Part shown: positions 15,963 to 17,520 of the stretch, piece by piece
How positions within the stretch are numbered: position 1 is the first letter of the stretch
Layout: each line of letters opens with the position of its first letter
Source: Planctomycetota bacterium
GTDB lineage: Bacteria > Planctomycetota > PLA2 > JAEUHO01
Assembly (NCBI GenBank): GCA_965222115.1
Contig: CBDCTJ010000007.1
Span: 2,496,001-2,560,000, forward strand
Direction of reading: 5' to 3'
DNA: 64,000 nt
Made by a program: the position numbers and the translations under genes
Notes under the pieces: model-generated
Databases searched by the model: none
What the model saw: only the letters and a program-made list of their open reading frames with translations
Told to the model about the DNA's origin: nothing

Positions 15963-16048
15963 TAGCCGCCTGTTAATTGCTGGTTTCGTTCGGTCGATAG
16001 GGGGCGCGAACCTCTGCGGAAGAACCGCGATTTCGTGCGGAGTCCCCC

Positions 16049-16969
16049 ATGTCGATTGTGTTTCGTGTAACTACGGGTCTCGCGGCGGTCCTGTTTTTCG
16101 GAACGTCGGTGTATGCCAAGTCATTTGACGTCGACGACGCGGGCGTCAAATTCAATCTACCTCTTGGATACTCATTCGCACAGTGCACAACGGGTGGCGG
16201 TACCTGAGGACGCTCCTCCACCCGTTCGTTGAACGGATTGAAGGTAGAGGGCCAGCCTTCCGTATACATCTACACCGGACCGAATGATTCGGGGTTTGTC
16301 TTGATCAAGGCCGATCTTGACTCGGGTGACGATGGTCCGAGTCGCGACCAGTTTCGAACCAAGCTGGAACAGGGTGCGAAGAAGGCAGAAGATAGCGGTC
16401 AACTTGCGGATGTGCGGGTCGTATCTCGCACGATCAAGGGTGCCGGTGGCCCCGCATTTGAAGTTGTTGGGACCGGCGAGCAACTCGGCGAAACGATGAC
16501 ACTTCGGACGTTGGCCGTGCTCTCAAACGACCGGGCCTACGTGTTCATTGCGACGGGCGACTCCGACACGAGCCTGGTTGCTGAACACGAATGGAGTTCG
16601 TTTCTCGCGAGTCTTGAAGTGAACACCGACAGCGGCATCCTTCCCCCGTGGGCACTCTACGGATTGGGCGGACTCGCCCTGCTTGGATTGTTGCTCTTGC
16701 TGCAAGGCAAAGGCTCGCCCTCGACGCGTCCCTACGTCGCTTCTCGGGCTTCATCGGCGGTTTCCAATGGGGGCGCCCGATCGCGCGCGACGGATGGATT
16801 GCCGAGGTACGACGGAGGCCCCTTGCAACGTCCCCATCTAGATTCACATCCGAGTGCGTTGCCTACACAGCGTCCGCTTGGGGTTGCGCGCACGTTACCG
16901 CCCCTCAAGCCATCGCGTCCGACGCCCCCTGGACTCTCGCGCACCATTCCCAGCCAAGACGGTCCATAG
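16049..16969 (+). CDS. exported membrane-anchored protein with in-frame TGA (candidate selenoprotein; otherwise nonsense-interrupted gene)
   Basis: GGAG RBS 16039-16042; ATG 16049 encodes signal peptide MSIVFRVTTGLAAVLFFGTSVYA; TGA 16205-16207 is in frame with downstream ORF 16229-16969; C-terminal TM helix and Pro-rich tail. Confidence 0.65.
16208..16252 (+). promoter_or_regulatory. putative bacterial SECIS element
   Basis: Stem CCGTTC(16222-27)/GAACGG(16231-36), GTT loop starting with G, 20 nt after TGA; lower stem CCTCCA/TGAAGG. Confidence 0.5.
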
Positions 16970-17043
16970 TTCCCAACGAAGCAACACCATCGAGGATCCC
17001 CAAGACCGCGGTACCATGTCGTTATCGAACTGGAGGTGTCCTC

Positions 17044-17520
17044 ATGGCCCGTCATCCGTGGATCTTGTTACTCGTCGCCTGTTTCTTCGTGCCTCAACTT
17101 GCGGGTTGCGGTAGTGACGAGGCGAGTGCCTACACCGAAGCCGAGCAACAGGCGATTCGTGAGGCCGATGCGAAGCGCGATATCGGATTGCCCGTGTGGT
17201 GCAAGGTTCGTAAGAAGGGTTGGGTCGATGGCGAGCCTGCCCAGTGCCCAGCGTGTGTTCAACAGGCGCTCAAGGAACTCTCCGACAAGAAAGACGCCGC
17301 GAAGATTGCCTCCAAGGCTGCGGAAGAAGCGCGTGGCCCGAAGTGCAGTTGCGAGAGTTGCGAATCGGGTAAGACGAATCCGGAAACGCATGCGAAACAA
17401 GAGTTCTACGATGGGTTCAGGATCCCCACGACTGAGGATGCCAAGACCGACACGCAAGCGGAACCCAAGAACAAGGCCGAATCCAAGAACAAGGACGATG
17501 CGTCCTCGGTTGACGAGTAG
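17044..17520 (+). CDS. hypothetical lipoprotein with Cys motifs
   Basis: GGAGGT RBS; lipobox LAG-C; WC, CPAC, CSCESC; charged tail. Confidence 0.7.
   Translation: MARHPWILLLVACFFVPQLAGCGSDEASAYTEAEQQAIREADAKRDIGLPVWCKVRKKGWVDGEPAQCPACVQQALKELSDKKDAAKIASKAAEEARGPKCSCESCESGKTNPETHAKQEFYDGFRIPTTEDAKTDTQAEPKNKAESKNKDDASSVDE

Follow-up and report, generated by a model that had tools for sequence, protein, structure and literature searches.

Does the TGA triplet at positions 16205–16207 of this stretch of DNA end a short gene, or is it read as selenocysteine (Sec) inside a longer one? The question arises for the gene at 16049–16969 on the forward strand of a 64,000-nucleotide (nt) stretch of a Planctomycetota genome (the window, from contig CBDCTJ010000007.1 of assembly GCA_965222115.1), which gene callers render as two products, an open reading frame (ORF) of 52 residues (P0004) and another of 246 residues (P0002) that begins at a TTG codon (Leu61, 16229–16231). 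The gene probably encodes one exported, membrane-anchored protein of 306 residues in which the UGA at codon 53 is decoded as Sec through SelB and a selenocysteine insertion sequence (SECIS), and which would represent a new family. Sec insertion itself, the topology and the chemistry of the product are what we infer from the evidence given below.

One gene across the in-frame UGA

An ATG at 16049, preceded at a spacing of 6 nt by a Shine-Dalgarno-like GGAG (16039–16042, read from the sequence), opens a frame of 52 codons that runs into TGA 16205–16207 in the context Q-C-T-T-G-G-G-T-[TGA]-G. Beyond this triplet the frame stays open to a TAG at 16967–16969 and the gene shows no second lesion, giving 306 codons plus the stop when TGA is translated as Sec (U). 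A Cys codon (TGC, 16184–16186, Cys46) is placed seven residues ahead of the Sec codon, in a C-x6-U arrangement. By codon usage, the sequence scores as coding both before and after the TGA (0.17 upstream and 0.17 downstream). A single in-frame UGA within an otherwise intact and conserved ORF, as looked for in bacterial selenoproteins, is therefore what the locus presents.

The letters at 16205–16207 are the same, without any difference, in the Logan contigs of four separately assembled runs, which represent two samples of one study from which the assembly itself may derive; the triplet is thus unlikely to be a base-calling error. Of 1834 ORFs in this genome that span 350 or more codons, 522 terminate with TGA, which is therefore an ordinary stop, and genome-wide recoding is excluded. 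The earlier note on the window had proposed the start codon with its ribosome-binding site, the TGA at codon 53, a downstream hairpin with a G-first loop and the use of TGA as a stop elsewhere; all of these are present in the sequence, and the check on read support that it had called for is answered by these contigs, which confirm the TGA.

Six-frame searches for homologues took in the GTDB family (28 genomes besides the present one, G000) and its order (40 genomes, G000 included). They returned uninterrupted homologues with 24–31% identity, and those in G020, G009, G008 and G001 (25–31%) cover residues 4–301 of the read-through protein, including the signal peptide and the motif G-D-G-Y-R-F-R-L-P-x-G-F. 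The counterpart of this motif in the window, D-A-G-V-K-F-N-L-P-L-G-Y, sits upstream of the TGA. Since the homologues run uninterrupted across the site, the alignments support the view that both ORFs belong to one gene, as had been claimed for the 306-residue protein.

The family is small and restricted to this lineage. An exhaustive HMMER search of 1.84 billion representatives returned nine proteins in all, and in a sample of 401 genomes of the phylum real matches were confined to this GTDB family, in a stricter first look in which weak matches may be missing. Used as protein queries, the 52-residue N-terminal ORF matched only itself and residues 24–205 returned only the window's own ORF. Two further matches lie in low-complexity tail sequence and were discounted: G069:C45 (30 bits, residues 190–300 only), where the open frame reads as an unrelated Pro-rich membrane protein, and G017:C82 (19.9 bits, residues 208–296, with one TGA and one TAG).

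The only close relative, P0003, shares 55% identity and comes from a different source, on a contig of 37.6 kb. Its annotated start is the codon that corresponds to TTG 16229 (M-G-G-L-K-V-D-G-Q-P versus L-N-G-L-K-V-E-G-Q-P), and the 250 codons downstream of this start are intact and conserved. Such a start is as expected with a stop a few codons upstream, an indirect indication of a stop in P0003. Searches for related loci in metagenome and genome contigs found no relative; a degenerate pattern for G-V-A-R-T-L-P-P-L-K reached seven metagenome contigs, none of which encodes a relative (tblastn), and the genome searches of the family, order and phylum gave no close relative.

A SECIS-like hairpin downstream of the UGA

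The SECIS-like element occupies 16215–16244 on the forward strand. Its upper stem consists of six base pairs (bp), with CCGTTC (16222–16227) pairing with GAACGG (16231–16236), and is closed by the apical loop GUU (16228–16230), which begins 20 nt past the UGA; the TTG chosen as a start by the gene callers sits within this hairpin. An interrupted lower stem is formed by pairing of 16215–16220 with 16239–16244. RNAfold assigns −7.3 kcal/mol to the hairpin in its context and −9.8 kcal/mol to the extended structure 16215–16244. The bacterial SECIS (bSECIS) model of Zhang and Gladyshev, as given in the Fig. 2 legend of PMC13188914, has a loop of 3–9 nt, a stem of 4–16 bp, a G in the first two loop positions, a distance of 16–37 nt from the UGA and a minimum free energy of −7.5 kcal/mol or lower. 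The GUU loop, the 6-bp stem, the 20-nt spacing and the −9.8 kcal/mol of 16215–16244 all fall within the ranges of that legend, so the RNAfold check suggested earlier places the element inside the model. Rfam gave no match at E up to 10 across 16000–17100.

Selenocysteine machinery and other Sec genes of the genome

The genome encodes SelA (416 bits), SelB (347 bits) and a tRNA-Sec with anticodon tca (71.6 bits), all above their curated cut-offs. A selD gene is likewise above cut-off (150.6 bits) and has itself a TGA at the active-site position, in A-A-G-G-U-A-A-K. The machinery expected of a Sec-using organism is accordingly found, with a selD that is frameshifted in the assembly.

Five genes have a Pfam domain that spans a single in-frame TGA at a known catalytic Cys position. 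They encode a Thioredoxin_2 protein (motif G-U-P-P-C), two AhpC-TSA/Redoxin proteins (G-U-K-P-C and T-U-G-P-C), a peroxiredoxin (F-T-F-V-U-A-T-E) and a T4_deiodinase-like protein (S-Y-T-U-G-P-F), and most of them carry signal peptides. The organism thus makes wide use of selenocysteine. In selD and these five genes the apical loop of the hairpin starts 17–24 nt after the UGA, and in three of them (the peroxiredoxin, the deiodinase-like and an AhpC-like gene) exactly 20 nt after it, as in the gene of the window. The loops have 3–8 nt with a G at position 1 or 2 (GGU, GGC, AGUUC, CGUGC, CGUGU and GAACUUGA), and five of the six comparators reach −5 kcal/mol or lower, versus 5.7% of 24135 control positions. 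The hairpin of the window (6 bp, GUU, 20 nt, −5.8 kcal/mol) is near-identical in design to those of the peroxiredoxin gene (7 bp, loop GGC, 20 nt) and of the T-U-G-P-C gene (6 bp, loop GGU, 17 nt).

An ab initio scan for in-frame TGA codons with a coding signal on both sides yielded 469 candidates. It served as a source of comparators only, with no selenoprotein count drawn from it, since antisense frames likewise register as coding and make it noisy.

Further candidates of the genome are noted here in their own right. L040 (G000:C7:2599827-2601242, minus strand) encodes an exported FG-GAP repeat protein of 471 residues (FG-GAP_3, 7.9e-15) with a TGA in P-G-V-W-U-C-A-S-S, followed by a 5-bp hairpin whose GUU loop starts 20 nt downstream of the TGA; it may be another unusual, non-thioredoxin selenoprotein. 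L042 (G000:C3:502670-503758, minus strand) and L043 (G000:C1:329469-331493, minus strand) encode exported proteins with a common C-x6/7-W-U-P-G around an in-frame TGA and hairpins of −7.3 and −7.7 kcal/mol; the site lies outside any Pfam domain, and HEAT/TPR repeats follow further on in L043. L038 (G000:C7:1528367-1529557) and L039 (G000:C7:2008637-2009953) encode exported proteins that contain A-C-T-U motifs and match neither Pfam nor NCBIfam; L039 has a hairpin of 10 bp (loop AGUU, 23 nt), and L038 has none in the narrow window of loop positions defined below. Four more genes from the scan are likely Sec genes: an exported protein with G-G-G-C-U-G near its N-terminus (G000:C1:499761-500747, plus strand), a lipoprotein with E-F-C-U-A-N-G (G000:C7:385120-386511, plus strand), a 174-residue lipoprotein with E-A-U-G-K-C (G000:C3:149085-149609, minus strand) and a C-R-F-U protein that is AhpD-like by eye only (G000:C7:221125-221718, minus strand). 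Together, these genes hint at a selenoproteome that numbers 15 or more members, most of them exported.

A second TGA-bearing homologue in another genus

P0012 (G001:C98, locus L031) shares 24% identity with the protein of the window. Its gene starts at a GTG behind AGGAGG and comprises 330 codons, and its single in-frame stop is a TGA at codon 52, next to codon 53 of our gene. The two sequences can be numbered without gaps through common anchors (P38, an aromatic residue at 41, Y75 and G77), and the two TGA codons thus occupy adjacent positions of the same loop, each after Gly-Thr. Both have a Cys upstream of the TGA, as C-G-T-U in P0012 and C-x6-U in our protein, and the TGA of P0012 is followed by an 8-bp hairpin with the loop GUG. 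The host, of another genus, uses Sec as well: tRNA-Sec and SelA are present, and the genes for its peroxiredoxin and deiodinase-like proteins retain TGA.

The five closest uninterrupted relatives of P0012 align at the site without gaps. One has Cys (TGC, G017), three have Ser (AGC in G044 and G022, AGT in G042) and one has His (CAC, G043), and SelA was found in all five genomes. TGA, TGC and AGC are single-step neighbours, which would be the pattern expected of a site that alternates between Sec, Cys and Ser. The G017 protein is the one homologue with Cys at the aligned position, and it belongs, like the three with Ser, to the other subfamily; no Cys was seen in the subfamily of our gene. Of the outcomes that the earlier note had named as refuting its reading, all three went the other way: the Sec machinery is there, independent contigs confirm the TGA, and the homologues show more than an unrelated residue at the site, with a TGA one residue away in P0012 and Cys or Ser in its sister clade. 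The nearest relatives of our gene have Leu or Phe.

A maximum-likelihood tree of 23 rows, built without the two G043 homologues, G001:C76, G006:C15 and two low-complexity rows, joins our gene with P0003 (support 100/100) and P0012 with its Cys- and Ser-bearing sisters (100/99). The two groups fall in opposite halves of the tree (97/94), and the TGA therefore needs at least two changes.

In one of the Ser-bearing relatives (L075, G042:C492) a 6-bp hairpin (CCACGG-GCUGU-CCGUGG, −9.1 kcal/mol) lies about 29 nt after the AGT codon, in the place homologous to the P0012 hairpin. It may be a leftover SECIS, or the coding sequence may simply be conserved there.

Predicted architecture of the protein

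The translation begins with a signal peptide (residues 1–23, 16049–16117), recognised by inspection, which ends in V-Y-A before K24 and forms a helix at residues 2–19 in the AlphaFold2 model. The full-length homologues all begin with a comparable hydrophobic segment that closes with A-x-A or G. An extracytoplasmic alpha/beta domain like PsbP, DcrB, LpqN and Mog1 would follow (residues ~24–195, 16118–16633) and would take in the motif D-A-G-V-K-F-N-L-P-L-G-Y, then a predicted transmembrane helix (residues 200–219, 16646–16705), which is a helix in the model and a hydrophobic stretch conserved in all homologues, and a Pro-rich tail, probably cytoplasmic (16706–16966), with a predicted local distance difference test (pLDDT) score below 55.

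The model was calculated from an alignment of nine sequences and is of moderate confidence (mean pLDDT 63, with 78–86 in the core residues 101–170). Compared with the PDB by Foldseek, it matched 17 chains with E-values no higher than 0.001, every one of them with the Mog1/PsbP-like fold. The E-values were 1.3e-5 for LpqN, 5.4e-5 for EagT6, 6.1e-5 for MTC28, 1.1e-4 for DcrB and 3.5e-4 for cyanobacterial PsbP, with Mog1 itself at 6.8e-3; PA94, SciW and Apa are further chains of this fold among the matches. The model therefore supports a LpqN/DcrB/PsbP/Mog1 fold for residues ~30–195. Members of this fold are envelope or photosystem II binding or assembly factors. NCBIfam, which includes curated selenoprotein family models, gave no family at E up to 0.01 for our protein; Pfam gave none at E up to 1, neither for it nor for P0012. 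The PsbP/DcrB-like domain, the transmembrane helix and the Pro-rich tail that had been read from the sequence are thus recovered in the model or the translation, and the missing matches agree with the earlier opinion that the family is not a described one.

The tail carries the motif R-A-x-D-G-L-P-x-Y, seen in our subfamily as F-S-R-A-x-D-G-L-P-T-Y after the transmembrane helix, and P-P-G-L-S-R-T-I-P in its C-terminal part. Most C-termini of the family read G-L-x-(S/R)-T-(L/I/R)-P-x-S-G-x-W (for example in L031, L062 and L070), to be compared with P-P-G-L-S-R-T-I-P-S at 16928–16966. The conservation of these motifs suggests a conserved cytoplasmic partner.

Alternative explanations

Several observations weigh against decoding of the UGA as Sec. 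The site lies in a variable loop (residues 47–60) with pLDDT below 50, within a fold that is, to our knowledge, not known for redox chemistry and has no redox enzymes among its members. At the site, Leu or Phe stands in place of Cys in the nearest uninterrupted relatives, and the eight uninterrupted relatives in our half of the tree have Leu, Phe or other residues, never Cys. One close relative of P0012 has His. In P0012 the hairpin loop starts 28 nt after the UGA, versus 20–21 nt in the peroxiredoxin and deiodinase-like genes of the same genome, and the stop of P0003 is deduced from its called start. The selD gene (G000:C1:654443-655201, minus strand), near a contig end, is multiply frameshifted, with five TGA and one TAA inside the match of the hidden Markov model, which could reflect either decay or misassembly where the contig ends. 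According to statements in PMC13188914 and PMC12013277, Cys homologues are numerous for nearly all accepted selenoproteins.

The hairpin, moreover, has a background. In a broad window (at least 6 perfect bp, a loop of 3–14 nt, G in the first two loop positions, 16–37 nt downstream) such a structure follows 1314 of 31901 in-frame positions of long ORFs (4.1%). In a narrow window set to the typical geometry of this genome (loop start at 17–24 nt, loop of 3–8 nt), 4.0% of the 24135 in-frame control positions reach the −5.8 kcal/mol of our hairpin. Within the published broad bSECIS window, a hairpin as good as ours or better follows the aligned codon in three of 17 uninterrupted homologues, and the 61-nt stretch folds no better than its shuffles (z = −0.73). 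Because of this background of about 4% and the fold that does not exceed shuffles, the hairpin, consistent as it is with a SECIS and with the local design, is suggestive only and alone would not carry the case.

These figures bear directly on the possibility of a recent nonsense pseudogene, in which a sense codon, such as a GGA of the Gly-rich loop, turned into TGA and left a dead gene with a hairpin that is there by chance. The absence of Cys in the nearest uninterrupted relatives would fit this course of events, and GGA to TGA is one change in the context G-G-G-T-x-G. It is nevertheless unlikely: the gene is free of other lesions, P0003 is called from the same internal codon and both genes keep 246–250 intact, conserved codons downstream, and the only stop in P0012, also a TGA, is one residue away, where a random nonsense stop in 330 codons would fall within one residue of ours with a chance of about 3 in 330. 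A genuinely split gene, with termination at the UGA to release an exported peptide of 52 residues and a restart at TTG 16229 for a protein of 246 residues, would account for the exact products of the gene callers, for the like call of P0003 and for the position of the TTG just 21 nt past the stop. The downstream product would, however, be devoid of the signal peptide and of the first conserved strand and motif, which are fused to the rest in 20 of 20 aligned full-length homologues. The TTG has no Shine-Dalgarno-like sequence before it, and in both interrupted genes, ours and P0012, the stop is TGA and the genome Sec-competent; a split gene is accordingly held to be quite unlikely.

Read-through without selenium, by a near-cognate tRNA (Trp or Cys) that suppresses the UGA with stimulation by the hairpin, would leave the same sequence, as the inserted residue is not distinguishable at this level, and the frameshifted selD of the assembly would be in keeping with it. 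A dedicated Sec system with many Sec genes of the same hairpin geometry in the genome, and the Cys/Ser alternates of the P0012 clade that fit a Sec site, make this improbable. That a sequencing or assembly error created the TGA is most improbable: indel-type errors or decay are seen at the selD contig end and the k-mer depth in the runs is low (2–5), but the four runs agree on the triplet across both samples, within the one study that may include the source sample. Decoding of codon 53 as Sec is thus retained as the likely reading of the gene.

Proposed mechanism

If the UGA is decoded as Sec, SelB with Sec-tRNA(Sec) would bind the hairpin 16222–16236, with its G-U-U loop 20 nt past the UGA, as in the established bacterial pathway, and would bring Sec to the ribosome so that translation goes on past the UGA. 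The product would be exported through its signal peptide and cleaved after V-Y-A23, leaving the PsbP/DcrB/LpqN-like domain outside the cytoplasmic membrane, the helix 200–219 within it and the Pro-rich tail inside. A flexible loop that links the first strands of the domain would hold both Sec53 and Cys46. There, Sec53 may act as a reactive nucleophile, either forming a reversible selenenylsulfide with Cys46 or capturing a thiol or metal ligand in the envelope, and its state might be relayed via the transmembrane helix to the conserved cytoplasmic tail. A role as redox sensor is purely conjectural. More broadly, it is quite possible, and proposed here only tentatively, that Sec has been recruited, perhaps twice independently, to one flexible loop of the PsbP/DcrB-like extracytoplasmic domain, within a family of membrane-anchored proteins that is confined to this lineage and in which the site cycles between Sec, Cys and Ser. 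The proteins would then form a new class of non-thioredoxin envelope selenoproteins, with the selenol as a sensor or covalent-capture residue and not as an enzyme active site.

Relation to known selenoproteins and folds

The gene resembles bacterial selenoprotein genes with a SECIS inside the ORF in having its UGA in a Sec-competent genome, a hairpin directly after it (GUU, 6 bp, 20 nt, −9.8 kcal/mol) and a TGA-bearing homologue in another Sec-using genus. Most families of bacterial selenoproteins are, however, thiol oxidoreductases whose Sec belongs to a conserved active site and whose Cys homologues are numerous, whereas the candidate Sec of our protein lies in a variable loop of a binding-type fold, with one Cys homologue found, in the other subfamily. 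The exported thioredoxin-fold selenoproteins of the same genome (UxxC Thioredoxin_2, AhpC/TSA and deiodinase-like) share with it the signal peptide, the single UGA and the SECIS geometry. They place Sec in UxxC or T-U-x-P within a thioredoxin fold, whereas our protein has C-x6-U in a non-thioredoxin fold and thus neither CxxU nor UxxC; P0012 has C-x-x-U, but within the same non-thioredoxin fold family. With DcrB/LpqN/MTC28, PsbP/CyanoP, Mog1 and EagT6/DUF1795 the likeness is in the predicted fold of residues ~30–195 and, for DcrB, LpqN and PsbP, in the extracytoplasmic location, predicted for our domain. Our protein differs from the Mog1/PsbP-like proteins in that sequence-level membership is missing (no Pfam family, as given above) and in its C-terminal transmembrane helix with a Pro-rich cytoplasmic tail, in place of a lipid anchor.

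Among the papers listed by a full-text search, as judged by listing and abstracts, none describes a selenoprotein of PsbP, DcrB, Mog1 or LpqN type, and as far as these searches go, Sec has not been reported in any of the Mog1/PsbP-like proteins compared above. The string "Planctomycet" is absent from the article texts of a review (PMC13188914), of deep-Sep (PMC12013277) and of BSepDB (PMC13326102, stated to hold 111 families); their family lists are in supplements, so that a prior description is possible. Selenoproteins have been reported in Planctomycetes, with the list in the S9 Table of PMC4807772. The selenoprotein family has apparently not been described so far. Most discovery pipelines require Cys homologues, as stated in PMC12013277, and a family like this one is therefore of the kind that is missed.

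Bacterial selenoproteins are routinely mis-annotated as two ORFs. If confirmed, the gene would extend the known selenoproteins by a family that has a binding-type (PsbP/DcrB-like) fold and resides in the cell envelope, with Sec in a variable loop rather than in a conserved catalytic centre, and would point to a lineage with a large, mostly exported selenoproteome. It would also provide a concrete test case for the origin of new Sec sites and of SECIS hairpins inside coding sequence.

Neighbouring genes

The gene is flanked by a divergent TonB-dependent receptor, a Cys-rich lipoprotein-like ORF and RNase HII. In 11 homologue loci, with flanks of up to ~1.5 kb, no counterpart was seen of the adjacent TonB-dependent receptor, RNase HII or DUF6498 proteins; the neighbourhood is not conserved and therefore gives no functional lead. 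The lipoprotein-like ORF (17044–17520, plus strand) begins 75 nt downstream of the gene and has a lipobox L-A-G-C, the motifs C-P-A-C and C-S-C-E-S-C and no Pfam match. It may be co-transcribed with the gene, and a role as its thiol or metal partner is conceivable.

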